From positions 16,618,001-16,682,000 of the forward strand of contig OZ249436.1 of NCBI GenBank assembly GCA_965235115.1: DNA of 64,000 bases, read 5' to 3'. Made by a program: the position numbers and the translations under genes. The DNA comes from Laetmonice hystrix. Taxonomy: Eukaryota. The notes under the pieces were generated by a model that made no database searches, was not told the DNA's origin, and saw only the letters and a list, made by a program, of their open reading frames with translations. Of this stretch, positions 4,746-36,800 are shown piece by piece; position 1 is the first letter of the stretch; each line of letters begins with the position of its first letter.

Positions 4746-4945
4746 AGACTGCTGAGTGATGCCCGGGACGCGCCTGCTGCACAGGATCATTTTCATATAC
4801 TACTGATGGCGATTTTCCCACCCGCCACAGCACCGTTCTGTAGACCCTTCCACTCCACCCCAAACTGCCCCGTTTGGCAGACCCCCAATTCCAAGGCGAT
4901 CAGACATGTATGGACTTTGTAAGTTAGTACAGTATTTATTGCTGA

Positions 4946-7734: not shown

Positions 7735-7989
7735 CTGGTAACAGGTGATGAGGAGTGCAGCGAAGGTGAAAGCTCCGGTGATTCCCTGCGCGGCACTGGT
7801 TTGTAGGAAGATCTTGGGAAGCTGGTGGAACGAGCCGTTATGTATTGGGCTGAGAGAGCTGAGCAGGGAGTCGTTGAGGGCAGTTGTGGTGGTGATCTCC
7901 GCCACCCCGCCGGCAGCCGCAGAGCTCCCGCTGGCCCCGGGCCCGCCCCCGGCCGCCGGGGGACTGTGAGGGGTAACGGTGTCGTTCAT
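7735..7989 (-). CDS. TMEM184B: TMEM184A/B-like transmembrane protein, first coding exon (85 codons); downstream exons not found in window
   Basis: Translation MNDTVTPHS...IFLQTSAAQGITGAFTFAALLITCYQ resembles the TMEM184B motif FLxTxAAQxIxGxFxxxALLITCxQ. Acceptor TTCCAG ends next to 8013 and a phase-0 donor CAG|GTAGGT lies at 7734. A versus B paralog assignment is uncertain. Confidence 0.85.
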
Positions 7990-13195: not shown

Positions 13196-13647
13196 CTCCT
13201 TCTCCCAGGCCTTGTCCTTCTAATATTGTAGTTGATACAGTTCTCTTAGTTTGTTAAATGTAAATTCCAGCAGGTTGTGTGGCTCTTCGTAACGTTTCAA
13301 TACCACATATGACAGGGGTTTCCTGGAGAAAATCTAAACCCATCCCTCCATCAAAACAAAATGGCACCAAACTCACGACGCATGCGTCAATCACGATGAT
13401 GTCATAATTGGCATTTTTAATGAAAATAGAGACTCTTAACAACTATTTTCCGACAGGAGTGATCATAGGGCTTCGATACAGACTTCTTCTTCGTCAGAAT
13501 CAGGCTCAAAAGACAGATAGCGTTGAATTACGCGCCTACATTAAACGATACAAAACTGTCACTCGACTGTCTTTGGCTGCTGCAGTCACCGGATAGGTTC
13601 TCCTGTCGTGGAGGTAAAATGTCCACCGGATGTGGCCACGAACAAGG
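13196..13647. promoter_or_regulatory. Probable original bidirectional promoter and first non-coding exons of TMEM184-like (-) and INTS1 (+)
   Basis: CpG-containing unique DNA between divergent genes. It has a minus-strand donor GAG|GTATGG at 13195, a plus-strand donor GAG|GTAAAA at 13614 and an ETS-like CCGGATGT near 13626. Confidence 0.45.
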
Positions 13648-14102
13648 ATGAAGGGAGGTAGATGTTCTTTGGCAACAAGCGAGGTCAGGCAACGACTGGA
13701 GTCTGGTGTCAATCACCCACGAGGCTCCGCCCACCAAGGCGGAGTTCTATAAATAGTCCTGGGGATTTCCCCGTTGTTGGCTCTGCACACTGACAGGGCC
13801 GGGCCGTGTGTGTCCTGGCCGGGTGCCCATGCAGCCCCCATGCAGCCGCGGTATCCACCCATACACCTGTCGGGGGAGGTTTTTAAACAAAAAATTATTC
13901 TAATAGGGCCTACTATGAATGAAGTGGCGGTGTGGCTGTAGGAAGAAGCCACCCATGGATGCGATGGTATTCATGCTCAGACGGCAAGTTGAGAATTTGG
14001 TGAAGAAAACATGAAAATTCTATTTAAGTCTGTGTTCGAGTGAAAGTTAAACTTGTGCACATGTATTTTAAAATGAAATTTTGTCACCATCATACAACAC
14101 AA

Positions 14103-14365
14103 CAGGGGCGGATCCAGGATTTAGGAAAAGAGGGGCCGGTTGAAATTAAAGGGGGGCCGAGCTGTAGGGTGTCCGGGGGCATGCGGGACAATTTTGGCAT
14201 CTAGAGTATCTGAAATGGCATTTCCTGAAATTTCCTGCATTCTGAGAAAGCAAAATGTTTGCTTTTACAGTTGCAAACAACAAAATTTTGTTTTTTTTTC
14301 TGATTGGTACCCTGACGAAAGGGGGGGGGCGGCCCCCTCGCCCCCCCCCCCTAAATCCGCCCCTG
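14103..14365. mobile_element. Short MITE of the CAGGGGCGGATCC family
   Basis: Termini CAGGGGCGGAT.../...ATCCGCCCCTG with internal poly-G/C. TSD not clearly resolved. Confidence 0.7.
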
Positions 14366-14844
14366 ACACAGTTCGAAGTGACACTGCTGGGACTGTTTTA
14401 GAACCAACTTACTATCGTTAATGGGTTTACAAAGCGCATTATAGGGCTTTGTAAAGGGCTCGCTTGTTGCCTACACTGTTCTTAGGCGGGAAGACGTTGT
14501 TTTGACAGTTTTACACTTCTTTTATTGAAAAATAAAAAATAAAACAAATTTCCAGGTCGGGGGAATTTCAGAGGTCGGGCGGGGACGCTAAATAAGTAAC
14601 TTTTTTATTTGCCCTAACTACAGTCAGTTAGGCAAAGTATTGATTTAAATATAATACTGGACTAGGCCTACTGTAGTTGTTGGGTTACCTACAGACTCAG
14701 GGGCAGATCCAGAGGGGTCGTGGGGGGGGGGGGGGCACCGGACTTAGGCGAGTGCCGGGTAGGCCTACCTATAATTTCCTGGGGGTTCTCAGTTTGGCCG
14801 GGGGGGGGGGGAGGGAAGTACTTCCCTTCGGACTGTATATTATA

Positions 14845-16290
14845 GTTGTTAGGTTGGCATAAGTCACCAGACTGCAGTCGTTGCCTGATCTCGCTTGTTG
14901 CCAAAGAACATCTACCTGACTGTAGTTGTTACGTTGACGTCAGTCACCAGACTGCAGCCGTTGCCTGACCTCGCTTGTTGCCAAAGATCTACCTGACTGT
15001 AGTGGTTAGGTTGACGTAAGTCACCAGACTGCAGTCGTTGCCTGACCTCACTTGTTGCCAAAGAACATCTACCTGACTGTAGTTGTTACGTTGACGTCAG
15101 TCACCAGACTGCAGCCGTTGCCTGACCTCGCTTTTTGCCAAAGAACATCTACCTGACTGTAGTGGTTAGGTTGGCATAAGTCACCAGACTGCAGTCGTTG
15201 CCTGACCTCGCTTGTTGCCAAAGAACATCTACCTGACTGTAGTGGTTAGGTTGGCAAAAGTCACCAGACTGCAGCCGTTGCCTGACCTCGCTTGTTGCCA
15301 AAGAACATCTACCTGACTGTAGTTGTTAGTTTGACGTCAGTCACCAGACTGCAGCCGTTGCCTGACCTCGCTTGTTGCCAAAGAACATCTACCTGACTGT
15401 AGTGGTTAGGTTGGCATAAGTCACCAGACTGCAGCCGTTGCCTGACCTCGCTTGTTGCCAAAGAACATCTACCTGACTGTAGTTGTTACGTTGACGTCAG
15501 TCACCAGACTGCAGTCGTTGCCTGACCTCGCTTGTTGCCAAAGAACATCTACCTGACTGTAGTGGTTAGGTTGGCATAAGTCACCAGACTGCAGTCGTTG
15601 CCTGACCTCGCTTGTTGCCAAAGAACATCTACCTGACTGTAGTGGTTAGGTTGGCATAAGTCACCAGACTGCAGCCGTTGCCTGACCTCGCTTGTTGCCA
15701 AAGAACATCTACCTGACTGTAGTTGTTAGTTTGACGTCAGTCACCAGACTGCAGCCGTTGCCTGACCTCGCTTGTTGCCAAAGAACATCTACCTGACTGT
15801 AGTTGTTAGTTTGACGTCAGTCACCAGACTGCAGCCGTTGCCTGACCTCGCTTGTTGCCAAAGAACATCTACCTGACTGTAGTGGTTAGGTTGGCATAAG
15901 TCACCAGACTGCAGCCGTTGCCTGACCTCGCTTGTTGCCAAAGAACATCTACCTGACTGTAGTTGTTACGTTGACGTCAGTCACCAGACTGCAGTCGTTG
16001 CCTGACCTCGCTTGTTGCCAAAAAACATCTACCTGACTGTAGTTGTTAGGTTGGCATAAGTCACCAGACTGCAGTCGTTGCCTGACCTCGCTTGTTGCCA
16101 AAGAACATCTACCTGACTGTAGTGGTTAGGTTGGCATAAGTCACCAGACTGCAGCCGTTGCCTGACCTCGCTTGTTGCCAAAGAACATCTACCTGACTGT
16201 AGTTGTTACGTTGACGTCAGTCACCAGACTGCAGTCGTTGCCTGACCTCGCTTGTTGCCAAAGAACATCTACCTGACTGTAGTTGTTAGG
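14845..16290 (-). repeat. Left 80-bp TIR-derived tandem array, 18 units
   Basis: The unit end ...TCTACC recurs at 14916, 14993 (3-bp deletion) and then every 80 bp from 15073 to 16273. 52 bp of the unit match TIR positions 1-52. Confidence 0.95.
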
Positions 16291-17624
16291 TTGACATGAG
16301 TCCAGTTAAAATCAATACTTTGCGTAACTGACTGAAAAGTTGTTGGGTTACCCACCGTACTCCCCTCCTGACTGTAGTTGTTATAGGCTGACGTAAGTTA
16401 TGTTATTATTTATACTTTGGCTAACTGACTGTACCTGTTAAGTTACCTACAATACTCTCCTCCTGAATGTATATCGCTTTTAGGTCGACCTATCAGTCCA
16501 CTTAAAATTAACTCTTTTAATGCCATTTCGTAGCTAGGCCTATAGCCCGAAGAAGGTTAACGTAGACTACATTAAAAGTATAGGCCTATAATGTGCAGGA
16601 GACGGGCCAAAAGCATCCATCTTACAGTTACAAACGACTTAGGCCTATGATATTTGTAGTAACTTTAGAACATTTTTTTCTAGCTGGGGCGGACTGATGT
16701 TATATAGACTGATCTAAAAACTTTAAAGTAGGCCTACGTATGCCAAGGAGAAAGGGAATTCAAAACGTATAGATAGGCTGTAAATTGCATGAAAATGTAC
16801 CAAATAATATTTAGTTTTAGTCTATAACTAGGCCCTACCAATGACTATTAGCCTAAAATGTATAATTTTCTGGTGAGAACCAGCCGGCTGGCTCATTTCG
16901 GGAATGACAATTCTAGGTCAGACAGAGGCTGCCAACTGCAACCTGACCCACCACGATATCGGACGGCGTCACCGTCATGGTCAATTTGATGCCTTCAGGA
17001 ACTCATAAAGAAGAGATGCCGACAAATTCTCACTCTCTAGAGAGCTGTCCCTTGTACAACTGCAGCACACAACGTTGTTGAGTTCACCAGTTTTACACGT
17101 GTTGACAGAAGTGCAATACGTCCATGCTGTTTGTTGGGTCATAAAAAAAATATATAGGCTAGCCTATATTGCTCAAATCAATGGAAAAAAATAGTGAAAA
17201 CCCACCCCGATCATTATATATTTTTTATGACATGTCATAATATGTATAGGCCTACGGTGACCATGCCAAGCGTTTGACAGGCATGATTTTAGCAAATATC
17301 TTAAAAATATAGAATATAATTATGATGGAGGAGATCTCTGATAATGACAGGACCATCAAGAAGTGTGAATGCCGAGTGCATGGGTCAGTCACGAGAGTCG
17401 GGAAGAGGGTGCAAGCTTGTAGGCCCGATACTGTAGCAGAATATGGTCACTGCTGAGCTATGCTAGGTCAGTCGGTCGCCTCCCCACCAGCCTCCCTCCA
17501 TCCCTGCGTTATGATTCGTTCTGGTCAATTAGACGCCGATACACAGACGTGCCTGCATGTTACAACCGTTTGCGCGGGAACGCGCGTCTCCACCTAACGG
17601 TCAGAAGGAGATCGAGGCCAGTAA

Positions 17625-18700
17625 GGGGCAGACCATTTAATAGCGGGGGGGGGGGGGGAGGGTATGGTTTTTCCTTCTGACCAAACTTTTTTTTTTGCTT
17701 CCAACAAAAAACAAACAATTTTTTTTTATCCCTAATCAAAAGCAAACAATTTTTTTCCCGAGGTGGCAGAGACAAACTTTTTTTTTCCAGGACATAATTC
17801 TGCAGCAACCATTGTGTTATCCCGTAAATTTCTGTTCCACAGACATAGGCGCCGGAAGATATTCACAGGTGGGCGGGGGGCACCAAATCATAGGTCCCAA
17901 GTTCCAAGTTTTGAAATGCTGGTGATAAGAACGTCGAAGGCGCGAAGTAGGCGCGAAGTCTCGAGCGGGGGGTCTGGGGGCCCTCCCCCGAAAAAAAAAT
18001 TGAAAATTAAAGTGCCAAATACACGTTTTCCTGGCATCTGGGAACAAAATCTAGGCCCTCTGTCGACGGTCTGACCATCTCCTGCCACCTTGGAGCTGGG
18101 GGGAGGGGAACTATATGCTTGCCCCCCAGCTTTTGAGCTGGGAGTGGGGGTGGGGGTGGGGGGGCAACAGGCCGGTTCCTACATAATTATAACATCTCTA
18201 CCACAGCCTTAGGAATATATGATTGTACTGTATTCAGCTTTGAACCATGCAGTACTTTTATAATAGACTATGAAACGAATTGGAAGTTCTAATTGTCTTC
18301 ACAGATTTGTGGGCTTTCAAATATCTTGTAGTGCAAGCGAATGTCTACATAAAACAATTGATCAAGTTATACATACTAGTATTCAATTGCATGTCATAAT
18401 TGTTCAGACTGATATGTTTTACTCAGTATTGTATAGAGTATGCCTAAATAAAACTGGTGACCGAGCGGAGCGAGGAAAATTTTTGGTCTTCTTTTAATTT
18501 TTTAGCAGTTTCGGGCAGATTTTTTTTTATAAATCTGCTTCCTGTCAACAATCTATTTTTTTTCACACACATTGCTAAACAAACTATTTTTTTCACACAC
18601 ATTTGAGAGCAAACTATTTTTTGGGGTAAACTTGGCAAACAAACTTTTTTTTTACGAAAAAACCATACCCCCCCCCCCCAGCTATTAAATGGTCTGCCCC
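17625..18700. mobile_element. PIF/Harbinger-like non-autonomous element, containing a further short insertion at about 17845-18180
   Basis: TIR GGGGCAGACCATTTAATAGC...GGTATGGTTTT mirrored at 18659-18700; TSD TAA at 17622-17624 and 18701-18703. Confidence 0.8.
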
Positions 18701-19347
18701 TAAATGGTTGTTACAGTATAGGCCTAGATCTACATGGTTGGGAGCCATTCTAATCAATTGGATCCAACATATTGATACGACTGTTCTTGTCCGCTCCCTG
18801 ACGAGCTGTATCATAACATAAATATAGAGTTTATAGTAGGCCTATTCAGGGGGCTATTGAGGGGACTCGACGAACAGATCCAAGGTTGTCCCTGGTTAAG
18901 TAGGATAATTGTTAGGCAACACTGAAAATATTGGGGGGGGGGGGGGCTTTAGCCCCGTAGCCCCCTCCCCTTGAATTACGGCCCTGATATAGTATCTATC
19001 ATGCATACATGTGTGCTATCGGGGGGGGGGGGAGACTCCCCTCTCAGCTGTGAAATATGCATTGTGCAGTCTGGGCTCAAAAATTTTTTTTCACTGAAAG
19101 GGGGTGTGCGCCCCCGATCGACCTATCCCCTCCATCCCCTCTTCGATAATTCCTTTAGGCCTAGTGTGTCAAATTGTAAATACGCCAGACACGTTTCAAA
19201 CTCTGCAAAATTGTGGAATTTCTAATAATTATTCTTTAAATTACAGGTAAATGTAATTACAATTTACATGGGATGAGACATGTATACATCGACCAAAGAT
19301 GTATCATACATTGACATACATACATTTGGACATTGGGACATACATAC

Positions 19348-19607
19348 CAGTGGCGGATCCAGGATTTCAGAACAGGATGGGGGGCAAATTTTGTTAGATA
19401 ATCAGTGGCCCATTTGGGTCTGTGGGCCCTTCCCCTAGAATTTATTTTTCAGGAACGTCGGAAACATGTTTTCTGAACATGTAGAGTAGAAATTTCTTCC
19501 AAATTCTTTAACGAAATTCCATTATTTTTAAGCATGAAACATAGAAAATAGACAAGATTTTGGAAAAAGGGGGGCCGGGCTGGGTGCCCCCCCTGGATCC
19601 GCCACTG
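19348..19607. mobile_element. Short MITE (CAGTGGCGGATCCAGG TIR)
   Basis: 16-bp TIR CAGTGGCGGATCCAGG/CCTGGATCCGCCACTG. Confidence 0.75.
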
Positions 19608-20125
19608 CATATACTGTCCTCTTTGGGTGCAGACGTTTGAACGTTACGAATGGACCTGTTTGGTCCAGGCGTACGGTTCGCACCAAGGCTGCATGGATTG
19701 AAACTTTATCTATACATGTTTGCCCTCTCGCTGCAGCCTTCGGAAAATATTACGGATATTATGTTTTTTTTATTCAGAATCGCGGAATTTTTTATTTTTG
19801 TATTTGTATTTTGTATTTTTTTACGGATATTCCGTTGGCAGTTTACGGAAACAATATTACGGAACTCGTTATTTTTACGGAAAATATCCGGTTCCTTTGT
19901 TGCCAGACATTTTCCGTAAATTTAACGGAATTTTCCTAACAGTGTACGATGCACCTATAAGCTTAGCAGTTGACCAGCTATCCGATATTCTGGACTGTAT
20001 TGCTAAGAGTAGGAAACCTCAGGTAGAAGTCTACTCCTCGCCGTAGTGTTTTGCACCTGTCAAATTGTTGCAACATGCACCTCCTTGAAAAGAATCCTGG
20101 ATCCGGCCCTGCTACGCCAGACATT

Positions 20126-20326
20126 CCGGTGGCGGATCCAGCAGGGGGATGGGGGGGGGGGGGCTTAAGGCCCCCCCCCCTATAGCTGACTCCAGGGTTA
20201 TCAGTTTGCATTATGTCTACGGCACACCTAAGAGGTTTGATATAGGCCTACATATACATCAAGCGCCCGGCCCCATCGCAAAATCCTGGATGTATCCCCC
20301 CTTCCAAAATCCTGGATCCGCCCCTG
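20126..20326. mobile_element. Short MITE of the GGCGGATCCAG family, adjacent to another truncated end near 20095-20111
   Basis: CCGGTGGCGGATCCAG...CTGGATCCGCCCCTG termini. Confidence 0.6.
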
Positions 20327-20559
20327 CATTCTTGCATCAGTGGTTTTATCTGTTGCCTGCGTCAGCAGTCACTTTCATGGCCGACTGTTATGTGATCGGT
20401 AGTTAGGTGTGTCTGGGTAATTGGGCGCGATTCACGCCGATTTCGAAGGCCCTTGCGGCTAATTATGGATGTGTGTACTTTATGTAGACGTCATAAGTTA
20501 TTTGTTATTTTTGTCGATTTTTCCAAGGCATGGACCGAGTACCAAGAACCCTACTGTGT

Positions 20560-21240
20560 TGCCGCTAGCATCCTTCGATCATGTGTCTCACAGTTATATT
20601 AGGGGATGCGGCTGATAGACAAACGATAGTAGTGGGGGACAACGAGGAGCTGGCTATTCAATATTGTGAGATGTATACATATTTAGGCAGTATTTTCACA
20701 TGTGATGGGAGAGTAAGTACTTATAGGGAGCATGCTAGGAGTGTCAAGAAGCATCTTATGAAGTTGGTTTCATTTCATAGACGAAACGCGGATATATGTC
20801 TTTTATAGAAGAAGGTAATGGACGCAGCGTTCTTGTCAGCTATTTTGTATGGCTGTGAGAGCTGGTTAAATGTTTCTCATACAGAGATGGACAAGATTTA
20901 CCACTCAGCACTAAAGGCATTAAGTAATATGTGTAAGAACCACGACTGTGAATGATTTGTGCCTGGCAGAGTTAGGGTATCCGCCCCTTAGATACTTCGT
21001 GTTACAGAAACAGAGGCTCTACTTTGAGAAGATGATTAATTCAAGAAGTGGTTTAGATGATGACCCTCTAATGATCGCTATAGATCTAGCACGTAGGGAG
21101 GGTATCTAAAATGGGGGAGGAAATTGTTAGAGGTATAGTATACCGAGTCTGGCGACTATATGACTACAGGGATCAAGTAAGTCAAAGTACGCTACATATA
21201 GAATAACTAACCCTACTCTTGAGGTGTATATATTTGCGTT
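20560..21240 (+). pseudogene. Degenerate non-LTR retrotransposon (LINE) ORF2 fragment, RT C-terminal region
   Basis: Broken translation YTYLGSIFTCDG...AAFLSAILYGCESW...ELGYPPL contains the typical post-RT thumb motifs (YxYLG, LxYGxExW), with stops and frameshifts. Confidence 0.7.
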
Positions 21241-21827
21241 GTGGTGACACATTAAAACCCGGAACATTTGAGAATGCAGTTATTGATAGTTTACTTTTGA
21301 AGAAATATTTTACCGATGTGAATGAGGTAATAAAAATACCCTTAACACTATAAATTTCTCTTGTGTTGGATTCATATGTATCAATTAATATTCACCATAT
21401 ATATAGAAGTACATTATGTTGTTCACGTTTTGATACGAAATTATAGGTTAATATATATCATTTTCCTTCAATTGAGTATTGTCTCTGCAGCCAGAAAGCA
21501 TGGCTCTGCATTGACACTCCCATTTGGACATTTGGACGCCATTTCGTGGTGAAAACTTAGACAAAATTTATCACTGCTAAGGGAAAATTTTAAAATAACG
21601 GTCATGATACAAACATAACAGACGTATGAATAAATGGCATATTGGTATTGATAAGGAATTTTACGCAGGCTACAGCTTGATGTGGCCGTAATTAAAGTAA
21701 ATAAATTATAGGCCCCTGCATAATTAGGCCTATCATACATCATACATCTAGGCAGGTTTAAAGGATGGTATGTTCATGTATATGTTAACCTAACAACCAC
21801 GCTCAGGAAGACAGTATACCCCCCCCC

Positions 21828-23511
21828 CCTACAGGTAACACGCAGTATTCCAGCAATATTACTGGATGGTTGCACGAGTATTGCACTTTGGGTAACATTG
21901 CTGCAACACTATTAGAAGATAGTTAAAGGTAAAAGATTTCAGCAATATTGAGTCAATGTTAGATGCCAGCATAAAGTATACAGTCCTGTTTTACACAGTT
22001 TGAATGTATGTTGATACAGTATTGTAGCAATATGCAGGCGCGTGTCCAGGATTTTCAACAGGGGGGGGGGGTCTCAGAAAAAAAAATTAGGAGCTCTGAG
22101 ACGCGATTCCCCGCCATTTAGGGCTCATTTTAGGGCATATTTTATGGATTCATCGCTCAAGGGGTTCAAAACGGCGGGAATGCTTAGAAAAAATCGCTCA
22201 ATGGGCTCAAAACGGCGGGAATGCTTAGAAAAAATCTATGCTGTGTGAAAGCAGGGGACCCCTGGACCCCCCCCCCCCCGGACACGCGCCTGAGAGTTCA
22301 ACAGAAATTTAATGTATGTTGCCACAGTATATTGCGGCAATATGAGAGTTCAACAGAAATTTAATGTACGTTGCCACAGTATTGCAGCAATATGAGAGTT
22401 CAACAGAAATTTAATGTATGTTGCTGCAGTATTGCAGCAATATTACAATTCAACATTTAGGCCTACATGTAATGTACGTTGCTGCAGTATTACAACAATA
22501 TTACAGTTCAACAGTATTTATATGAAGGCCTATTGCTGTAGTATTGTAGCAATATTATGCTACGGTATTCTGAATGTATGTTGCTGCAGTATTGCAGCAA
22601 TATGAGCAATGATGTAATGATTGGTGTATTTCTCGTGGAACACACATGGATATCTACACGTGGAAATGATCGGTGTATTTTCTCGTGAAATACACGTGGA
22701 TATCTGGGTCCCATGGAAAGAAAAAGTCATATTAAAATATGTAAATGTCTATGATAACATTTTCCCAAAGAAAAACTGGCTAGCTCTGTACGACGATTGA
22801 CTTTGAGAAAGAACCGTTGTGAGAAGCTGAAAGTTTAACAGTACTGGCAACTGGATCAATCGTAGCCAACTTGTCAGCTCTGTGTGTATACAGAGCTGAT
22901 GCTAGGGTGACCCAAAAATCTAGTGAATTTGTTATATTACAATTTCAGAAGCAAAAATTATATCACGAAGTTAGGAGCTTTGCGGTGGTGTAAATCTTTA
23001 AGGCGGTGGTGTAAATCTAGATGAATCTAGATGGTTTTCCGGACGATTTCTTTTTCTAGCGAAATACCCCTTATTACATATGTGGATATGTCCGCAGAAT
23101 GTCACCTGGAGAAATGGAAAACTGGGTGATATGACATGGAAAATGACACTTGTAATGCACATGGATTACTCTGGATATCCACGTGTATTCCACGGGAAAT
23201 CCACGAGTTGTGCCTGCTGGGTATTAGGCCTATAATATTAAGATGATATTGTTTAAATATTGTTCCAGTATAATATCACAATATTATGAAAACACAACTT
23301 GCGAATGTTGCTGCCATGGTACAACATTGGTGCAACAAAATGATCATGCTGCAATAATATTAAAATAATATTGATGGAAAGTTGTGCCAATGTAGGCTAA
23401 TCATAATATTACTGAAAACATTACTGCAACATTCCTGAGTCTTCACCAACATTGCTGCAACGAAATGATCATGTTGCTGCAATGTTACTTGAACATTGCT
23501 TTGTTAGCTGG
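21828..23511. mobile_element. Degenerate CCCAG-terminated (CMC/EnSpm-like) element or elements with (A/G)TTGC-GCAA(T/C) subterminal repeats
   Basis: Right ends ...TGTTAGCTGGG (23511) and ...GCCTGCTGGG (23221); many GCAATATT/ATTGCAGCAAT repeats; the left end is decayed. Confidence 0.4.
22035..22292. mobile_element. Short MITE (CAGGCGCGTGTCC TIR)
   Basis: TIR CAGGCGCGTGTCC/GGACACGCGCCTG, interrupting a local repeat unit GCAATATG|AGAGTTC. Confidence 0.7.
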
Positions 23512-24174
23512 GCCAGCAACTGAAACCAAAAGGTTAACTGAACAACAGTTATAGGAGGGGAGTATTGTGGGTAACCCAAGAACTACAGTCAGTTCGGCAT
23601 AATATTGATTTTAACTGGATTCATGTCAACCAAACAACTACAGTCAGCAGGGGAGTAGGCCTACGGTTGGTAACCCACCAACTATACAGTCAGAAGAGAC
23701 AACTACAGCCAGGAGAGGAGTACTGTAGGTACCGGTGTTTTTTGGCAACACGTAAGGTCAGGCAACGAAAGCAGTCTGGTGACTGACGTCAAACTAACAA
23801 CTACAGTCAGGAGGGGAGTACGGTTGGTATCCCAACAACTAGTCTAAAGTCAGTTAGGCAAAGTATTGATTTTACCTGGACTCATGTCAACCTAACAACT
23901 ACGGTCAGGAGGGAAGTACCTGGCGGATCCAAGGGGGGGGGGGCATGGGGGCACGTGCCCCCTCCCGGCAATATTTCCCAGGAAATTAGGTAGGCCTGTA
24001 TCCGGCGCTCGCCCAGGCCGGGTCCCGCCCCCCCCCCCCCCGGCAACACCCGGTGCGCCCCCCCCCCCCCACGGGAACGACACCTCTGGATCCACCCCTG
24101 ATTAGGCCTACGGTTGGTGACACAACAACTACAGTCAGTTCGCCAAAGTATTGATTTTAACTGGACTCATGTCA

Positions 24175-27100
24175 ACCTAACAACTACAGTCAGGTAGATG
24201 TTTTTTTGGCAACAAGCGAGGTCAGGCAACGACTGCAGTCTGGTGACTGACGTCAAACTAACAACTACAGTCAGGTAGATGTTTTTTGGCAACAAGCGAG
24301 GTCAGGCAACGACTGCAGCCCGGTGACTGACGTCAACGTAACAACTACAGTCAGGTCGATGTTCTTTGGCAACAAGTGAGGTCAGGCAACGACTGCAGCC
24401 TGGTGACTGACGTCAAACAAACAACTACAGTCAGGTAGATGTTCTTTGGCAACAAGTGAGGTCAGGCAACGACTGCAGTCTGGTGACTTATGTCAACGTA
24501 ACAACTACAGTCAGGTAGATGTTCTTTGGCAACAAGCGAGGTCAGGCAACGGCTGCAGTCTGGTGACTGACGTCAAACTAACAACTACAGTCAGGTAGAT
24601 GTTCTTTGGCAACAAGTGAGGTCAGGCAACGACTGCAGTCTGGTGACTGACGTCAACGTAACAACTACAGTCAGGTGGATGTTCTTTGGCAACAAGCGAG
24701 GTCAGGCAACGGCTGCAGTCTGGTGACTGACGTCAAACTAACAACTACAGTCAGGTAGATGTTCTTTGGCAACAAGCGAGGTCAGGCAACGACTGCAGTC
24801 TGGTGACTTATGTCAACGTAACAACTAAAGTCAGGTAGATGTTCTTTGGCAACAAGCGAGGTCAGGCAACGACTGCAGTCTGGTGACTGGCGTCAAACTA
24901 ACAACTGCAGTCAGGTAGATGTTCTTTGGCAACAAGTGAGGTCAGGCAACGACTGCAGTCTGGTGACTGACGTCAACGTAACAACTACAGTCAGGTAGAT
25001 GTTCTTTGGCAACAAGCGAGGTCAGGCAACGACTGCAGTCTGGTGACTGACGTCAAACTAACAACTACAGTCAGGTAGATGTTCTTTGGCAACAAGCGAG
25101 GTCAGGCAACGACTGCAGTCTGGTGACTGACGTCTACCTAACAACTACAGTCAGGTAGATGTTCTTTGGCAACAAGTGAGGTCAGGCAACGACTGCAGTC
25201 TGGTGACTGACGTCAACGTAACAACTACAGTCAGGTAGATGTTCTTTGGCAACAAGCGAGGTCAGGCAACGACCAGGGATGAAAGTTTTCAGGAAATTTC
25301 CTGAAATCAGGAAATTTGAAAAAATCCCCCCCCCCCCCCAAGAAATAACACCCAAAAAAGAAAATAGGCCTAGATCTATAGGCAAAAGAGGTAGGCCTAA
25401 GCCAAGGCTAAGTATTGCCCTGGACTGTGTGGTGGGCAATTAATATCAAATGAAACAATATCCCCTTCCAGGACGTTTTTTAACACCATGCAGCTCAATA
25501 TATCTCTACCTGCCAAAGTTCGTTTATAGATGGGGATATTAGAGTGTCTCAAACCCGTTCAGTGTCACGGGTGCCACCGTGCATAGGCCGGTCTGCCGGG
25601 GGTGCTGGTCCCTGTAGCTGTGGTGACATCGCTCACATAGACCGGCCCGCGTGGGCTGACTTCTACCGGCACGCGGTGGCGTCTGTCCCGTCTGGCAGGC
25701 ACGGCCCCGTGTCGCTGTGGTGAGAGCGACTCACCTCAGGTAATGACTTCAGGCAAAATTGATGGTCAGGCAGCTGCGAAGCCCGTTGATTCAGGCTTGC
25801 CATTATGCCATATCCATGCGCGAGTTTTGCCTGAGCGCTCACTTAGTGAACGAGACTATAGTATAGACAGACCGGTCTGTCTAGTCCCGGCGTTGGTGAT
25901 AGTGATTAGGCTGACGAACTATGCACCATCACAATGTCACTCCTCACAGGAAACTGGGTCAATTTAGTTCTATGAATCTGCCTAGTATATATGTCAGTAA
26001 GTTCTCATAATGTGTTCTTGCATATAAATTTGAGGATAGTGGCATTACGTAAGTGGTTTTCACTGAAGTTTTGGGGTTGTCAGGACTTTTCATTACATTT
26101 GTCGATCAGTGCAGGTGTCCTGATAAGACCGGAAGTGACAATTTTCACAACAACATGAGTGGCACATGGACACACGGGCTGAACCACTCGACTCAGCGAA
26201 GCCTGTGTTGCTTGGCTGAGAGCCGCTGAGGGTCGTGACTGCTGAGGGTCAAGACTGATGGACAGCCTGTGTGGTCAGTCTAACACATGGAAGCTGTTTG
26301 ACAACGTAATCGGTTGCATTTTGGACGCTAAAAGCCGACTGGATTCCAATGTTGGAGAGAGACGGCAGAGCCAGGCAGAGGTTGACATGCACTGACTGTG
26401 ACTGAGTGACAGGCAAGCAACAGCCTTGAACAGGGGCATGGACTGATGAGTGATGGAGTCTATCCAGCAAATTTGCAGGGGTGGGGGGTTGAGGGGGGGG
26501 GGGGTGGCGACTAAATACTGAGGACTAGGCCCTATAATATATAATAGCTAGGAGGCCTTATCGGATCATGATTGTCTGCTGTTCCTAGCCTGACTTTTTT
26601 TAAGGGGGGGGGGGGGGGTAAGCCTTGGATGTGCGCATGAACAAATATTAATTATGGACATTGGCCCCCCCCGCTCCCCCCCCCCCCCCCGGTCAGAATT
26701 TCAGGAAATTTTACAGCTGGCCACTTTCATCCCTGAACGACTGCAGTCTGGTGACTGACGTCAAACTAACAACTACAGTCAGGTAGATGTTCTTTGGCAA
26801 CAAGTGAGGTCAGGCAACGGCTGCAGTCTGGTGACTGACGTCAAACTAACAACTACAGTCAGGTAGATGTTTTTTGGCAACAAGCGAGGTCAGGCAACGA
26901 CTGCAGCCCGGTGACTGACGTCAACGTAACAACTACAGTCAGGTCGATGTTCTTTGGCAACAAGTGAGGTCAGGCAACGACTGCAGCCTGGTGACTGACG
27001 TCAAACAAACAACTACAGTCAGGTAGATGTTCTTTGGCAACAAGTGAGGTCAGGCAACGACTGCAGTCTGGTGACTTATGTCAACGTAACAACTACAGTC

Positions 27101-28820
27101 AGGTAGATGTTCTTTGGCAACAAGCGAGGTCAGGCAACGGCTGCAGTCTGGTGACTGACGTCAAACTAACAACTACAGTCAGGTAGATGTTCTTTGGCAA
27201 CAAGTGAGGTCAGGCAACGACTGCAGTCTGGTGACTGACGTCAACGTAACAACTACAGTCAGGTGGATGTTCTTTGGCAACAAGCGAGGTCAGGCAACGG
27301 CTGCAGTCTGGTGACTGACGTCAAACTAACAACTACAGTCAGGTAGATGTTCTTTGGCAACAAGTGAGGTCAGGCAACGGCTGCAGTCTGGTGACTGACG
27401 TCAAACTAACAACTGCAGTCAGGTAGATGTTCTTTGGCAACAAGTGAGGTCAGGCAACGACTGCAGTCTGGTGACTGACGTCAACGTAACAACTACAGTC
27501 AGGTAGATGTTCTTTGGCAACAAGCGAGGTCAGGCAACGACTGCAGTCTGGTGACTGACGTCAAACTAACAACTACAGTCAGGTAGATGTTCTTTGGCAA
27601 CAAGCGAGGTCAGGCAACGACTGCAGCCCGGTGACTGACGTCAACGTAACAACTACAGTCAGGTCGATGTTCTTTGGCAACAAGTGAGGTCAGGCAACGA
27701 CTGCAGCCTGGTGACTGACGTCAAACAAACAACTACAGTCAGGTAGATGTTCTTTGGCAACAAGTGAGGTCAGGCAACGACTGCAGTCTGGTGACTTATG
27801 TCAACGTAACAACTACAGTCAGGTAGATGTTCTTTGGCAACAAGCGAGGTCAGGCAACGGCTGCAGTCTGGTGACTGATGTCAAACTAACAACTACAGTC
27901 AGGTAGATGTTCTTTGGCAACAAGTGAGGTCAGGCAACGACTGCAGTCTGGTGACTGACGTCAACGTAACAACTACAGTCAGGTGGATGTTCTTTGGCAA
28001 CAAGCGAGGTCAGGCAACGGCTGCAGTCTGGTGACTGACGTCAAACTAACAACTACAGTCAGGTAGATGTTCTTTGGCAACAAGTGAGGTCAGGCAACGG
28101 CTGCAGTCTGGTGACTGACGTCAAACTAACAACTACAGTCAGGTGGATGTTCTTTGGCAACAAGCGAGGTCAGGCAACGAATGCAGTCTGGTGACTGACG
28201 TTAAACTAACAACTACAGTCAGGTAGATGTTCTTTGGCAACAAGTGAGGTCAGGCAACGACTGCAGTCTGGTGACTGACGTCAACGTAACAACTACAGTC
28301 AGGTGGATGTTCTTTGGCAACAAGCGAGGTCAGGCAACGGCTGCAGTCTGGTGACTGACGTCAAACTAACAACTACAGTCAGGTAGATGTTCTTTGGCAA
28401 CAAGCAAGGTCAGGCAACGACTGCAGTCTGGTGACTGACGTCAAACTAACAACTACAGTCAGGTGGATGTTCTTTGGCAACAAGCGAGGTCAGGCAACGG
28501 CTGCAGTCTGGTGACTGACGTCAACGTAACAACTACAGTCAGGTAGATGTTCTTTGGCAACAAGTGAGGTCAGGCAACGACTGCAGTCTGGTGACTTATG
28601 TCAACGTAACAACTACAGTCAGGTAGATGTTCTTTGGCAACAAGCGAGGTCAGGCAACGGCTGCAGTCTGGTGACTGACGTCAAACTAACAACTACAGTC
28701 AGGTAGATGTTCTTTGGCAACAAGTGAGGTCAGGCAACGACTGCAGTCTGGCGACTTATGTCAACGTAACAACTACAGTCAGGTAGATGTTCTTTGGCAA
28801 CAAGCGAGGTCAGGCAACAA
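24175..28820 (+). repeat. Right 80-bp TIR-derived tandem array, about 40 units (14 + 26), interrupted by a hAT-like insertion
   Basis: GGTAGATG (or a variant) at 24193, then every 80 bp from 24274 to 25234 and from 26782 to 28782. Reverse complement of the left array. Degenerate units also near 23735, 28960 and 29160. Confidence 0.95.
25274..26735. mobile_element. Non-autonomous hAT-like element with 6-bp TSD (hAT6-like), nested in the right array
   Basis: 13-bp TIR CAGGGATGAAAGT/ACTTTCATCCCTG, TSD AACGAC on both sides and subterminal TCAGGAAATTT motifs. Removing it restores the 80-bp register exactly. Confidence 0.85.
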
Positions 28821-30389
28821 CTACAGTCAGGAGGGGAGTAAACCTGGCGGATCCAAGGGGGGAGCATTGGGGTCACGTGCCCACCCAGGCAAAACTGAGA
28901 CACCCCTTATTATTTCCTAGGAAATTAGGTATAGGCAAAGTAGTGATTTTAACTGGCGTGTTTTTTTGGCAACAAGTGAGGTCAGGCAACGACTGCAGTG
29001 ACTTATGTCAACCCATAGTACAGTTCTATGGTCAACCTAACAACTACAGTCAGGAGGGGAGTAGGGTTGGTAACACAACAACTGTATAGGCTATAATGCA
29101 GTCAGTTAGGCAACGTATTGATTTTAACTGGACTGATGTCAACCTAACAACTACGGTCAGGTAGATGGTTTTTTGGCCACAAGCGAGGTCAGGCAACGAC
29201 TGAAGTCTGGTGACTTACGTCAACCTAACAACTAGATCTACAGTCAGAAGCCGAGAAGGGGAGTGCAAAAGGTGAAGCCGGGGGTTCGGGTTGCTCGAAC
29301 CCCCCTCCCCCACCCAAAATTAATATAGATTGGCCTAATTATGGTTGGGACCGCCCCCGATCTCAGTTGGACCCCCCCATATAGGCCTACCCCAATCTCA
29401 GTTCTGCCTACATCCCTGGGAGTACGGGGTAATCTAATAAGTACGGTAGTTAGGCGAAGTATTGATTTTAAATGGACTGATGTCAACCTAACAACTACAG
29501 TCAGGAAGGGAGTATTGTAGGTAGGGGGCCTAACCTTACACTACCTACGGTAAGCTGCCGAGATATCTCGGTTGGAGGGAAGGAATCGCTTGGCGCAAGT
29601 AGATCTAAATGAGTAGGCCTATCACTGGGGAATCGGGGGGGGGGGGTCACATGGGGTCCGGCCCCTCCCTCTCCCTAAAATTTCGTGGCGCCTACGGCTG
29701 CTGATCATGCATGGCACCCGACGTCATTGTGTCTTTTGACATTGCCATTGGTCATTGAATAGCTTATTTTGTGCTCCAAAATGCATTAGATTTCACCAAA
29801 TGACACTTTGATTTTCAAAATTGTATTTTAGTGGGGCTTCGAAGTAGATCTACCCGCCCCCACCCCCTGGGACCAAACTCACACTCACTCTTGATCAGAT
29901 TAGGGCCTACCTTATGGAACAAACTATCTGTCCACATCAGAAAGTTAAGTGAGAAAAATGAATTTAAATCCGAAATTAAAAAATTTTAGGCCTAGATCTA
30001 TAGCCTACCAATCTCCTATAGGCCTGCATGTGTTTCTCTCTGATAATAATCGCTAAATGTGAAATGGATTAGATCTATGGTGGCTTACTTTGTTACAAGT
30101 TTGATTTTTAGATCTATATTTACTCTGTATGTAACGTAGGCCTAATTGTATTGTGAATATGAATTTGGATTCATTCTAAATGTAGGCCCTAATTATGTTT
30201 GTTGATTTCTAGGACCCAGGACCCGTAATCCTGGTTAAATATGGTCAATAAAAATTTAAGAAAAACTGCCTAACACACTGTAGCCTATACTCTTTTTTTA
30301 CCAGATTACTGGCAGATAATGAGTCAGTTAGGCCTAGGCTTAGCCGCGTGTTAAACAGCATAGATACGCCTAGATCTATGCCTATAATC

Positions 30390-30565
30390 AGGGGTGTAGC
30401 CAGGATTTTTTGAGGGGGGGGGGGGGTGCTTAGATCCGTGACAAGCGGAAACCGCGCACATGTGCCCGTCTTCATCATTCAAAATTCAATCTTTACTACT
30501 GGTGTAAGCCTGGGTGGGGGGGGGCGAGGACCCCCGAGCCCCCCCCCCCCCCTGGCTACACCCCT
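30390..30565. mobile_element. Short MITE (AGGGGTGTAGCCAGG TIR)
   Basis: 15-bp TIR AGGGGTGTAGCCAGG/CCTGGCTACACCCCT. Confidence 0.7.
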
Positions 30566-30844
30566 ATGCAGGCTATGCCTATGGTAAAATGCTGATGGAT
30601 GAAGATAACATGCCCCCAACACGTGGTGAATGCGGTATGAGGGAATTCCCAGTGACGTCATTATATGGTTTACTGGTCTTCTAATGTGAAGAGTTCCATT
30701 TGGGCGGAGCCTCGTGGGTGATTGGCACCAGACTCCAGTCGTTGCCTGACCTCGCTTGTTGCCAAAGAACATCTACCATGAAGGGAGCCTTTATTAGATG
30801 TGGCTGATAATTATTGTCTTTAAAGTTAGGAAACACTCCATACA

Positions 30845-33800
30845 ATGTCAAGGAAGCCCATCAAGGGCAAAGGTAACGCAATTGATTTCATCGAGTACCG
30901 GTAGATGTTATTTGGTCGTGTCCCGTCGCTCAAAATAGGAGGCCTGCCCTTCCTACACTGCTGCTACGCTAGTGCTACAGCCTACAGCACAGGCTACACC
31001 AGTCACACTCACTGACTTAGTATTTTGTTAGGCAGTGTAGGCCCCTATTTAGCCGGCAACGGCTTAATAAGATTGGGTATCTTAGTTTGACTAATCCAAA
31101 CGGATTGCTAGGGTTAGGGTCAGTCTTAGGGTTTTTATTTTTGTCTCAAATTGGGTGTTAATTGTTAATAGTCTGCTATTTTATTTAGCCATAGTACTGG
31201 CAGAGAGCCATTATGATAATTATCCAAAACGATTGAAGCCTAATGGTCACATGACCCCACCAAATGCCAGCTAAATATATCCTATGTTAGTATGAAGAGT
31301 AGGGGCCTTCCATAAGTTAAGGCCTTGATCTACTGCTGCGGCAGAGGACCGCAAGCGGCCGCAAGAGAACGCCTTGGGGTCGCTGCAGCATGACCGCAAT
31401 GCGACCACAAGGTAGCAGCAACACTTTTTTCACTGATTGACCAAAGCGGCTGCGTTGCACACAAGATGGCATATGCGTCGTCCGTTGTTCTGGTGACGTA
31501 ACAATGCCAATCTTCTGATTGGCTGGTTCCTTGCGGTTGAGCAAATCACGCCGCAAAATATCAAACATGCTAGATGCTGATCCACCAAAGCAGACACCTT
31601 GCGACTGCCCTGCCGCAAGCACGTCTGCAAGAGAATCGCAAGGAAATTGCAGCAGTGAATCAAGGCCTTTATGAGCAATTCTCAAAAGTAGCTTAGTACA
31701 AGGCCACCCCTTCTTAACATTCTCCTTTTTGGCTAAAAATCGTTAAACCAATTTCTAATGTGTTAAAAGTGTTAGGAGCAATTCATAAAGATGGCAAGTG
31801 TAGACAGTGAGCCTGTTAGACAGAGTATGCATCTCTGTACTACCGTATACAGAGACGGACGCCACTTAGTGCAAGTTCCTGGTGTGTTCGGTCAAATCAT
31901 TCGACCGCCATGAAAACCCCTCCCCTGCCCATATGTCTGGACTGAATATTGATAAACACGCTTAAAGTAACTTATCTCACTTATTTCCAAGTTTGGAAAG
32001 CATGACGAGACATAATAAGGGCAGCACAAAGTCTGGAATCAATGAATTTCACTCTCTGCCTATCGCGGCCATTTTGACCTCCCGGGTCAGGGAGTAGCCT
32101 GGTACCCTGCCTAACAGACGCGTCCGCTATGTTACGACATACGTAGAGCAGGGGACCTTGCTAGGTCAGAGAGATGCATGCTGGGACATAAACAGGCAAC
32201 AGAAGCCGCAGCTGTACGACACTTCGGAATTTGATGTTTTATCCTTAAAATGCTTGTCGAACCACTAAAAGAAGACGTGGCCCATGATAAATGGATGTCG
32301 GTGAGTTGATCGGTACATGAATTTGTGTTGCCAGTGACACACCAATTTTTAACATTGAGTGGGCGTAAGCCTCACTGGCTGAGGCTTACTACGTAGGCTA
32401 TGAGCCTGTGTATCAGACTGGGTGTCATATGCCTTGGCCACAACGCTGCCTGGCCCCTCCTCAAAAACCAGCCCCTGATGGTGGATTTTATGATCGCCCA
32501 CCATGATAGCAGCCTGGGTGGATTTTATGATCACCCACCATGATAGCAGCCTGGGTGGATTTATTGCCCACCTCGATGATAGTAGCCTGGGTGAATTTTA
32601 TGATCGCCCACCCCGATGATAGCAGCCTGGGTGGATTTCATTAATGCCCACCCCGATGATAGCAGACTGGGTGGATTTTATGATCGCCCACCCCGATGAT
32701 AGTAGCCTGGGTGGATTTTATGATCGCCCACCCCGATGATAGCAGCCTGGATGGATTTTATGATCGCTCACCCCGATGATAGCAGCCTGGATGGATTTTA
32801 TGATCAGCCACCCCGATGATACCAGCCTGGGTGGTTTTGTAAAAGCTCAGCCTAATGATAGCAGCCTGTTCTGGTATGGACCTAGCAAAATGAAATCATT
32901 CAGGTTTAGTTCAGTAATAAAGCTGATATGACATAAATTTCTCAACATTGTCAATTTCAGGCCATGCACCAGCAGGTGACCTGATTGCCTTAGGTAAGTC
33001 AGGCTTCAATATTGAGTTTTGTTTGACTTGCTTCAGAGGTCTGACATACTTAAAGAAAATGAAACAAAGTTTTGGGTACTTGATTCATTTTGCTATCTTG
33101 TATCGACAAATGTATGGCCTTCTACGAGCAGTTTCCATAGAAATGGTATTTACTGCAAAACTTTAATATATTTCCTTGAAATAAGCTCAGGATTTCCTCT
33201 GTTTAATAATTAGGATCTAAGGTTCGTGGGGCCGATGCAGAACCCAAGTTATTGCCATCTAAGAAGATCAGTCTGGCCCCAGTTGGAGCCAAGCGAGATG
33301 CCCCAGTCAGTAGTCAAAGTAGCCTTGCTGCCAAGAAACCCAAGGTGGGGCAACCATTTGCCCTCGGCCGGGCCGCTGAAGCAGAAAGCAGAAGTTCTCC
33401 TACTACACAACTACAGCAGTTTGAGGAAATTGCTAAAGAAGGTTTGGACCAAGTCTAATTAAACACCTCAATGTTTACTTTGTTAATAAGTCTGTATGAA
33501 GATTTTAGAAGCATAGCTTCAACATGTTTAAAAGTTGTATGGAGATAACCTTAACCACCACAACACTTGATTTTATTTCCATTTACTTTGAACAGTCGAG
33601 CCCCAAAATCTTCTCAATGCTATTCTTGATGCTGGTGAGGATGACGCCGAGATCGAGAAGCTGCTTTGTGGTGCAGTGCAGTACCTCAAGGTGAACAGGA
33701 TCAAACCGGACCCATCAATGTTTCTCACGCTCATGTTTCTAGCCAAGTCAAGACCCACCTTATTCCATGGTGAAGTTGTCATTAAGGTAAGTCAAAAAAA

Positions 33801-36800
33801 TGCCCTTTGAGTGATTAAATTTTAGACCAGCATCCATAACGAGTGCAGATATGCCTCCCTATCTTTACAATGATATTCAGAAAATTTTTGCCTTGAATGA
33901 ATGCATTAATGGAGTACCCTTTCTAACCATGCTTAAATGGCCAATATTGAAATCAGCGGAGAATATAATTTCGTAAATTTAACATCTTGCAGGCCTTCTG
34001 CAGTTTGTTAAAGCGTGATGTATCCCTCAACTTCAAGTCGAAGGGAAACCCTCTAGTGTCTGTTCTGACGTGCAATGTACTCATGGCAGCCTTTGCTGAA
34101 GAGATGCACTGGCCTGATGACTTTGTTATGGTAAGTTCTGGCCTGATGACTTTGTTATGGTAAGTACTGGCCTGATGACTTTGCTATGGTAAGTACTGGC
34201 TTGATGACTTTGTTATGGTAAGTTCTGGCCTGATGACTTTGTTATGGTAAGTACTGGCTTGATGACTTTGTTATGGTAAATACTGGCCTGATGACTTTGT
34301 TATGGTAAGTACTTGCAGCCTCCTATGGTATGTGTACTTTCATTTCAGTAAGTAATGTCATGAAATCAGTGTAGTTGACACAAATCCAATCTTGCGATAT
34401 CTTGTATTTTAATTTATTTGTTTATATGAACTTGATGATGTGTGTTCCTTTCGTAACTTGACAGTGCATGTTTTATTTGGACTTTCATGATGTGTTCTAT
34501 TCTTATCCTGACGTTGTGTATTTCAGGTATACCTTGACGATGGACTTGGAGAGAGAGTTTGGGTCGATCGACCAGACTGTAAAGCATTCGTTGACAACAT
34601 TGTCACTGGGTTTGGTACACACCTACCCAAGACCAGCATGTTGGCATTAGACCCAAGCAAGCCTGAACCAGCATCAGCAGGTATGTTACCACATTTTGAC
34701 ATGGTGTTCATTCTGTTAACACATTTTGACTTGTTAGGTGTTCGTCACATTGCCACATTTTGACGGGTTTTTTAAAGGAGCAAGTCCAAATCCCAGTGCC
34801 TGCGGTGAGGATGAGGAGCGTAGTTTGGAGTCTATGGAGAGTGGAGACAGGCCAGCTTCTGCTTTATCTGATGACACAGACACATATCCAGTCGTGAAAC
34901 GGTCAGTTATGTCTATCGTAACAGAACCTATTGCTGCTAGCAGCAGTACTGATTAAGTCATTGTGACCAGATGTAAGGCCATCTCCTTTTTGTAGCTATG
35001 CTTGCACTGTTAATGTTGTGAATAGTTTGGAGTGACCATTTTCTGTGAGTTTACTGTCCTCCCATGTGTTGTAAGCAATTCTCAAGAAAACCTGAATGGC
35101 AGAAAATCAGGTTACAGAGAACTGAGGTTAGGTTGAGAGTGTCAATTCAAGTTCTGACCATCTGGTGTTTTCCTTTCTCAGTTACACGTACCAGCAAGTT
35201 TCCATTGAGATGGAAGTAGTAGAAGTGATGAGAGAGCAGTTATCAAGACGCCAGGTCATGGACAGTGGGTCGCGTAACTTGGTGCGTGTCATGACAGCAA
35301 CATGTGCCTATAATGAGATCCGTATGGTGGCAGCGAGTCGTCTCGAGATGTGGTTACAGAACCCAAAGGTATTTGCCCAGTCCAACCTTGTGCTCAAATA
35401 TGTCCGGATTATTGCGATTCCTTCATTAGTATCATTAGTAAAAGCTTGCTACATGGTCCTGTGTATCTAGCATTATGTTTCCATTGACCTGGCAAGCACA
35501 AGAGCTTCTGGTGGTATAAACTGGCATTATGTATGTTTCAGCTAACCAGGCCAGCACAAGAACTCCTAATGGCACTATGTATGAACTGCGACCAGCACTC
35601 GCCTGCTGATGTTGAGGTCATGAGTCAACTTGCCAAGATACGCCTCAAGACCAAACCATTGGTCAACCATTACATTCTCGGCATCAGGTGAGAAACTGGT
35701 CTTGGTAATGGAGATTTTGATTTGGTTGCGGGTTTTATGCCTTCGCCACATATGGCACATATCATACCCTAGGGGGATTCAAACCGAGAGGGGAGTGGCG
35801 CTGTGGTCACAATCCAGAGGCTTAGACTACTGGGCCACTGAGGCCGCCCTGTTAGTGGACATGATCAAACCATTATGAGGGGATTGATTAGGGAATACCT
35901 TCTTTCAGCTGCTCGTAATTGTTTTAATTGAATAGATTTGACATGATGTGTCTGATTGTGGAGGCAGGTTAACTCAAGTTAACTCGGACATCCAATCAAA
36001 AGAAGTTTTTGTTTTGGCAGGGAACTGTTAAACCAACACCCTGACAACATGGGTACTCTGATGACCCACACCATCTACAATGAGCTGTCGACATCCCGCA
36101 ACCCTAACAACATGGCGTTAATAACAGTCATGTTCCAGCACAGTTCAGAGAATGCAGCAGGGGTAAAGAACCTGGACCTTTGTAACCATCCTCTAACAGA
36201 ATGTTTCTATCAAACATATCTCACGTTTGCTAAATAATGAGGTTGGTGTGGTCTTAGCTTATAAAAGGAAATTTGTACTAAATTTTCCATGTTTCAGTTA
36301 TTGGCAGAAATCTTCCAAGACCTACTGACAAATCGGGATGACTATCTGCGTGCACTGCGAACACTCCTGCGTGAAATTATGCGTGCAGTAAGGCATGACA
36401 TGAATTTCTCTGCATTTGCGCTGGGCTTGATGCAGGAACGAACTGAGCCTAAGTTCAGGAATATGGAACCACAGCACAAGGTCAGTAATGAAGTTCATTT
36501 TATGAGTAACTAAAGAAGATTACTTTTTCTAAATTATTCTTAAACTTTAAAAATGTAGTTTTTCACACAACCCATCATGAGTGACTGGTCCTGGGAATAG
36601 TAGCGGGTAAAGAGGCATTTTGTTAGAAAAGTAGAAAATGCCTTTAAGGTTAAAAGTAATTATTAAAGTGAGCCATATGGAGCCATGTTTGTCATCTAAT
36701 GTCTCGATTGTTTTAGGACCGCCTGCTGTTGTCGCTGACAGACCTTATATCCCAGACTGCCCTGCTAAGCGTCACTCCCAGTGTTCGTGAGGCCGCCTCC

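Follow-up and report, generated by a model that had tools for sequence, protein, structure and literature searches.

How a housekeeping gene fares with 17 kb of transposon DNA placed directly in front of its start codon is the question raised by a 64,000-nt stretch of the Laetmonice hystrix genome (contig OZ249436.1, positions 16,618,001 to 16,682,000 of the forward strand; hereafter the window), in which a foldback-type DNA transposon stands at the 5' end of INTS1. A sequence-only reading had proposed that the element lies in a probable 82-nt intron of the INTS1 5' untranslated region (5'UTR), that it splits a bidirectional promoter, and that INTS1 tolerates it by splicing out an intron of 17.2 kb. 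The present analysis confirmed the insertion as real and well defined, of a kind already known and at a site such elements are known to prefer, namely the 5' ends of genes. The insertion is most likely heterozygous, so INTS1 need not tolerate it. Chance cannot account for the element and where it lies; the 82-nt intron is the favoured reading but has not been shown.

The element is bordered by terminal inverted repeats (TIRs) of 77 bp, in which 76 of 77 bases are complementary, and by a 9-bp target-site duplication (TSD; 13648-13656 = 30778-30786). When flank lengths of 4 to 14 bp (n = 11) were tested for a direct repeat, 9 bp alone gave one. Its parts follow in the order TIR, unique spacer, reversed array, 7.9-kb middle, array, spacer and TIR (Table 1), and both arrays are reversed relative to the neighbouring TIR, which makes the whole symmetric. 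The two arrays can pair over up to 1319 nt with 94% complementarity. Contigs of four public runs (X1 to X4; one sample, one study, none listed as RNA) were compared over 11800-14830. At 13709, the sole mismatch between the TIRs, all the listed contig depth of X1 to X3 has the right-TIR base, so that the assembled base is either private to this copy or an error of the consensus. The TIR region is multi-copy: an 87-nt contig over 13673-13759 had a depth of 396, and the summed depth at 13709 reached 1091-1738 against 37-58 in the flank, values which are rough and give no copy count. This depth, together with contigs that leave the assembled sequence at 13657, marks a dispersed, mobile family. A 6-bp duplication, as found around the insertion nested in the right array, is unusual for hAT-like ends. 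A part of the right spacer (30117-30268) matches an INTS1 intron (48927-49092) in inverted orientation at 76-87%, a shared dispersed repeat which could also pair in a read-through transcript.

No credible Pfam match was obtained for any of the 123 stop-to-stop frames of at least 48 amino acids in the element (two sub-threshold, unrelated ones apart), and no transposase was found among them. The frame at 20569-21111, which carries what we take to be motifs of long interspersed nuclear elements (LINEs), had no match in Pfam or the PDB, and Rfam gave no match in the window. With inverted arms containing tandem repeats and a variable, non-coding middle, the element is of the foldback type. It is a new non-autonomous member of the Mutator/Foldback-like kind. 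The 9-bp duplication fits Mutator, but as no transposase was found the superfamily is assigned tentatively. Other superfamilies with duplications of 8-9 bp exist, such as Merlin. Mutator-like elements (MULEs) are described with duplications of 8-10 bp, a range that includes the 9 bp found here, and with TIRs that are longer than 100 bp in all but two of 14 Aedes families, so that a TIR of 77 bp is shorter than typical (PMC5225508). Plant Pack-MULEs do not exceed 7 kb according to a review (PMC6431247), by which measure the element is large at 17 kb. A 23-nt TIR pattern had no match in metagenome_contigs, and searches of open-access full text (supplements excluded) listed no paper on this element or on a promoter shared by INTS1 and TMEM184.

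Other identities were considered and rejected. A long terminal repeat (LTR) element, a DIRS element or a Polinton is out by the features that distinguish these groups, given the absent coding capacity, the 9-bp duplication and the inverted ends. Two independent small elements are out as well: a single 9-bp duplication brackets the entire 17 kb, and 25 bp beyond the array core are present at the two ends only. The arrays are no artefact of assembly, as unit-to-unit joints occur in contigs (the array length is as assembled).

The state of the locus in the sampled animal was read from the contigs around the left junction. Position 13657 is the last base common to the filled and the empty site. 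In X1 (record 4) and X3 (record 20), contigs follow the assembled sequence as far as 13657 and then run on for 150 letters at odds with the element; a contig of X2 (record 13) ends at 13657. Single-nucleotide polymorphisms were noted in the flank at 13507, 13533 and 13534. With words of 31 letters, a genome carrying the filled site only would be expected to give a contig reaching about 30 bases into the TIR. Contigs of the flank had depths of 48, 37 and 58; exact, element-specific contigs in the left spacer had 28, 24.9 and 24.5 (X1) and 31 (X3), about half of the flank. Since contigs leave at the last shared base and depth is halved on the element, the insertion is very probably heterozygous and the sampled animal also carries the empty allele. 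Some points weigh against this: the empty allele is deduced from a contig break, the 150 diverging letters themselves not having been read, no contig among those listed bridges the filled junction, depth is not copy number, and the one sample is possibly the one assembled. INTS1 loss acts recessively in zebrafish and human, and mouse embryos do not survive it (PMC11381918).

The gene downstream was identified as INTS1 by one exon: its PDB match is human INTS1, with an E value of about 2e-19, and invertebrate proteins named INTS1 match it at 66-72%. The model is alignable from its first residues with three homologues, and ATG 30845 is therefore the likely start. It lies 67 nt past the right TIR, as the sequence-only reading had it, and 58 nt past the duplication. 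The 44 introns of the coding region range from 96 to 2088 nt (median 236). For the divergent gene on the left, the first exon gave nothing in Pfam or the PDB, and its family rests on the match to protein P0018, whose domain PF03619 we take to denote the TMEM184/OST-alpha family. A 152-nt contig of X4 (record 31) aligns to 13196-13344 with zero differences and stops at a predicted donor boundary; as donor and contig end coincide, this segment is probably a 5' exon of the divergent gene. Run X4 is probably an RNA set, to judge from this one contig boundary. From 13344 to the INTS1 ATG the empty allele measures 371 bp. A bidirectional promoter has divergent 5' ends within 1 kb; here the 5' ends, with start sites taken from sequence, are less than 1 kb apart, head to head. 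The INTS1 start was reached in one of nine related loci (L001, from a relative), where the same two genes stand head to head at 4458-6345, their ATGs about 1.6 kb apart, with the first INTS1 coding introns as in the window and no match to the element. In human, INTS1 and TMEM184A presumably lie near each other on 7p22. An old linkage between INTS1 and the PF03619 family is suggested.

Between the two genes, the ratio of observed to expected CpG peaks at 1.07 (13400-13599) and is 0.33 in introns. The likely core promoter contains motifs which we take to be YY1-like (13358), NRF1-like (13379) and a CCAAT box (13407). In empty-site coordinates the CpG peak and these motifs lie 250-350 nt upstream. 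If the 5'UTR intron is real, both start sites and the motifs are to the left of the element and the bidirectional promoter is intact: the INTS1 leader is split from the coding exons, the promoter is not, and the divergent gene should be unaffected. In the sequence-only reading, the intron and the split promoter are therefore at odds. The head-to-head gene pair that it implies is supported, but the promoter itself is cut off from INTS1 only if there is no intron.

The splice sites of the putative intron were scored with matrices built from INTS1's own 44 introns. Excision joins the GT at 13614 to the AG ending at 30825 as a segment of 82 nt (43 + 39), reproducing the coordinates proposed before. 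The donor scores 5.87 bits, above 7 of 44 real donors but reached by 86 of 1550 decoy GT; the acceptor scores 3.96 bits, above 8 of 44 real acceptors but reached by 174 of 1422 decoy AG. Both fall in the lowest fifth of real sites, yet within the real range. Thirty of the 44 real introns pass both thresholds. A YTRAY motif 19 nt before the acceptor bears out the branch-like motif noted earlier, although so short a motif occurs in the last 60 nt of 29 of 44 real introns. A transcript spliced 13613^30826 has no upstream ATG and an unspliced one has four, and the 198 nt before the segment are free of ATG. The likelihood ratio for the intron is about 7-25, with thresholds set after the fact. The insertion target is thus probably an 82-nt 5'UTR intron that would normally remove the four upstream ATGs. 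This part of the sequence-only reading was retained for its real-looking sites and the ATGs removed, with the reservation that the sites are weak and that 3-10% of positions would have such a pair by chance alone.

For the filled allele, the reading preferred here is that a Mutator/Foldback-like transposon entered the open, promoter-proximal DNA of the TMEM184/INTS1 pair recently enough to stay polymorphic. RNA from the host promoter would run into the element, where it would mostly be lost to cryptic splicing, for instance at 14270, where an acceptor scores 10.4 bits, and to polyadenylation at 14531/14538. The filled allele would be weak or null and would persist because the empty allele covers it, and the divergent gene would retain its promoter. 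That most filled-allele RNA is lost through cryptic splicing and early polyadenylation is given about an even chance. Competing signals are abundant. The left TIR holds donors at 13658 (4.61 bits) and 13684 (7.88 bits), of which the latter beats the native donor and leaves the four upstream ATGs when used. Among the 1185 donors and 1123 acceptors of the element, 109 and 118 respectively score at least as well as the native sites. Its sense strand has seven AATAAA, and nine ATTAAA are present besides. The AATAAA at 14531 and 14538 and the acceptor at 14270 precede the first array. Removal in one piece would require an intron of 17.2 kb, eight times the longest of INTS1. Of 20 maize Mu alleles that have a 5' transcript, 17 have one that enters Mu and ends inside it (bioRxiv 10.1101/2023.06.05.543741). 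Several observations speak against such a loss. Introns several kb long do occur and are spliced in this genome, the inferred 5'UTR intron of the divergent gene measuring 5,182 nt; introns of every sort are rich in AATAAA and AG-rich decoys; and the maize data refer to a plant, where most of the insertions (22 of 35) were in coding sequence (same preprint). We infer this fate from the sequence, and a transcript of neither allele was seen.

The readings that compete with this one differ in whether the intron exists and in what becomes of it. There may be no 5'UTR intron at all: INTS1 transcription would begin right of 30798, 15-45 nt upstream of the ATG, the GT and AG would be there by chance, and the element would lie in the promoter and separate INTS1 from the shared upstream motifs. 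The segment is shorter than all 44 introns, so that its resemblance to the shortest of them, claimed earlier, amounts to being roughly near the minimum, and its GC content of 0.415 is above that of all 15 short introns (0.31-0.405). A comparably good donor-acceptor pair occurs at 161 of 2130, 107 of 1108 and 29 of 1108 control positions (2.6-9.7%). Each ATG feature alone is found at 7-11% of positions (about 10% for the ATG-free 198-nt window, 7-9% for at least four ATG in 82 nt). A rival acceptor at 30797 scores 5.08 bits, above the native site, and its use leaves an overlapping upstream ATG. At L001 the layout is similar: a GC-donor-like site stands 78 nt before the INTS1 ATG, acceptors stand 5-10 nt before it, and two ATGs are bracketed. 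However, donor-like sites occur in 21-29% of its 90-nt windows, and its alignment with the empty-site leader does not stand out from shuffled sequences, of which 12 in 200 and 249 in 500 reached its score. In X4, 14 of 30 bins show depth, but 13432-13635, over the proposed exon 1, is bare, which counts neither way. Against a start close to the ATG stand the coincidence of site pair, ATG-free leader and ATG cluster inside the segment, the upstream position of the CpG peak and promoter-like motifs, and the layout of L001. Human INTS1, too, presumably has a non-coding first exon; the placement of its residues 382 and 399 in exon 9 (PMC12470242) is compatible with a coding or a non-coding exon 1. 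Taken together, this reading as a whole appears quite improbable.

With the intron in place, INTS1 on the filled allele could still be expressed in two ways. Clean removal would keep 13613^30826 as the main junction, the inverted arms pairing in the pre-mRNA and bringing donor and acceptor together. Both native sites are outside the element; the TIR:TIR duplex has 77 pairs (-169.7 kcal/mol) and leaves 43 and 48 nt outside, duplexes of TIR and array unit reach about -109, and the left TIR is predicted to fold onto the first array unit, burying its two donors. Complementary sequences within introns have been described as a means of bridging and looping-out (PMC7404189). However, the native sites are weak, the fold was computed for 1.4 kb only and carries no shuffle control, and heterozygosity takes away the selective argument. 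The polyadenylation signals and the strong acceptor are transcribed before any array and some 16 kb before the right TIR; competing signals thus come first, and timing argues against clean removal, which is rather unlikely. In its strongest form the foldback architecture would neutralise its own insertion, paired termini and nested inverted arrays hiding the element's donors in the nascent RNA and bringing the native sites within about 90 nt, so that the 17.2-kb intron is removed from an 82-nt site, INTS1, an essential gene for the Integrator scaffold, is expressed as usual and kb-long double-stranded RNA is shed; this is improbable, and double-stranded RNA, adenosine-to-inosine editing and small interfering RNA are possible only if the arrays are transcribed. 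The element might instead supply a new promoter, its right-TIR boxes and internal motifs firing outward and a short intron from 30584 or 30635, just inside the right TIR, or from 30718 leading to acceptor 30825 in the normal INTS1 frame. Presumed motifs at this end are a GC box (30702) and a CCAAT box (30721) in the TIR and a CRE-like site (30653) just inside. The donors score 4.7-5.1 bits, 108-242 nt from the acceptor, and a 30718^30826 transcript has no upstream ATG. An unspliced outward transcript, in contrast, has two, one of them overlapping the start, and the CpG ratio at the right end is 0.56-0.63, near the level of coding sequence. At the left end, what we take to be a GC box lies in the TIR (13727) and a TATA-like box just inside (13748); the latter, the lone match of the tested TATA pattern, faces inward. 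X4 has depth at 13636-13839, so the ends of the element's family may be transcribed, although its contigs reveal neither strand nor copy. Mu-initiated transcripts were found in 20 of 33 maize Mu alleles (bioRxiv 10.1101/2023.06.05.543741). On balance, such a rescue is unlikely. Tolerance of the insertion through a 17.2-kb intron could therefore not be kept as the leading interpretation, with the insertion most likely on one haplotype and the element bringing competing donors, acceptors and AATAAA; a low-expression allele and a promoter in the element, both named in the sequence-only reading as alternatives, are jointly more likely.

Table 1. Features of the INTS1 5' region and of the inserted element (positions in the window; uORF, upstream open reading frame).
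Feature	Position	Strand	Remarks
Non-autonomous foldback-type DNA transposon	13657..30777	.	17,121 bp; arrays make up 27% of length
Left TSD copy	13648..13656	+	9-bp direct repeat
Left TIR	13657..13733	+	77 bp; first 52 bp = array-unit core
Left array	14843..16302	-	~18 units of 80 bp, opposite to adjacent TIR
Probable broken LINE reverse-transcriptase remnant (cargo)	20569..21111	+	weak lead: nearest named cluster RVT_1, score 0.90
Right array	24164..28828	+	~14 + 26 units of 80 bp, split by nested insertion
Nested insertion in right array	25274..26735	.	1,462 bp, non-coding, 13-bp inverted ends, 6-bp duplication, within array unit
Right TIR	30701..30777	-	77 bp; sense-strand donor 30718 (4.72 bits)
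Right TSD copy	30778..30786	+	starts with upstream ATG; 9-codon uORF if unspliced
Putative 5'UTR intron	13614..30825	+	82 nt empty (43 + 39), 17,212 nt filled; predicted from splice sites
Putative INTS1 non-coding exon 1	13430..13613 (start approximate)	+	no ATG 13421-13618; presumed
INTS1 coding region	30845..52375	+	45 exons, 2119 aa, 0 internal stops
Likely shared core promoter	13345..13430	.	likely function, from motifs and CpG
Probable non-coding 5' exon, divergent TMEM184-family gene	13196..13344	-	predicted donor 13195 (7.71 bits) and X4 contig
First coding exon of divergent gene	7735..8013	-	ATG 7989; best match P0018, 73% identity, carries PF03619

Some further observations were made in the window. 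X4 has a depth of 55 at 13738-13839, just downstream of the inward TATA-like motif at 13748; if this is RNA, some copies of the family are transcribed from the left end. In INTS1, the acceptor and start of one exon look duplicated at 43700-43900, where the first copy is degenerate and the model takes the second, and four minisatellites (34108-34313, 37067-37306, 41845-42370 and 51915-52120) have units that contain INTS1 splice donors. The first intron of the divergent gene includes a very high-copy short element (12050-12212), with a summed depth above 600,000 in X1 and X3 and opposite-strand joints. A second apparent head-to-head pair, of a minus-strand and a plus-strand gene, lies at 56640-59330; by eye, the first exon of the latter resembles what we take to be mitochondrial ribosomal protein L27.

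The locus most likely offers a clean example of a large non-autonomous foldback transposon that entered the 5' region of a housekeeping gene and now segregates there in the heterozygous state, probably to the detriment of the allele. It also calls for caution in annotation, since in the assembled haplotype INTS1 is separated from its promoter by 17 kb, unlike in the other allele. If the filled allele were expressed, a 17-kb cut-and-paste element could be hidden in a minimal intron by RNA pairing, or could be the source of a replacement promoter in an animal. A natural pair of filled and empty alleles in one animal makes the question directly testable allele by allele.

Among known systems, Tm1, a Mutator/Foldback element of root-knot nematodes (PMC3169594), shares with the present element 9-bp duplications, composite inverted ends, tandem repeats in variable number, non-coding members and nested insertions. 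It differs by a sized copy of 1,080 bp, 14-bp repeats and a member with a Phantom-type transposase, in contrast to 17 kb and 80-bp units here. Tetris of Drosophila virilis (PMC4079207) is similarly built, with an outer domain, a tandem array derived from part of that domain, a non-coding middle and arrays of kb size. Compared with Tetris, the true terminal repeat is just 77 bp, the spacers of 1.1 and 1.5 kb are mutually unrelated, and the arrays repeat, in reverse, the terminal tip next to them. Muta1 and other MULEs of Aedes aegypti (PMC5225508) also have 8-9-bp duplications, subterminal tandem repeats and non-autonomous derivatives with heterogeneous interiors; unlike the element they carry repeats of 9-15 bp directly inside the TIR, measure 3 kb and have a transposase shown to be active. 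For the setting, the closest parallel is maize Mu (bioRxiv 10.1101/2023.06.05.543741), which likewise prefers 5'UTRs and promoters. Those insertions are in a plant, were measured by RNA-seq and have no foldback arrays, whereas for the present element no transcript has been seen. A host transcript that ends in Mu and a transcript that is initiated in Mu nevertheless provide models for two of the three outcomes proposed for the filled INTS1 allele.

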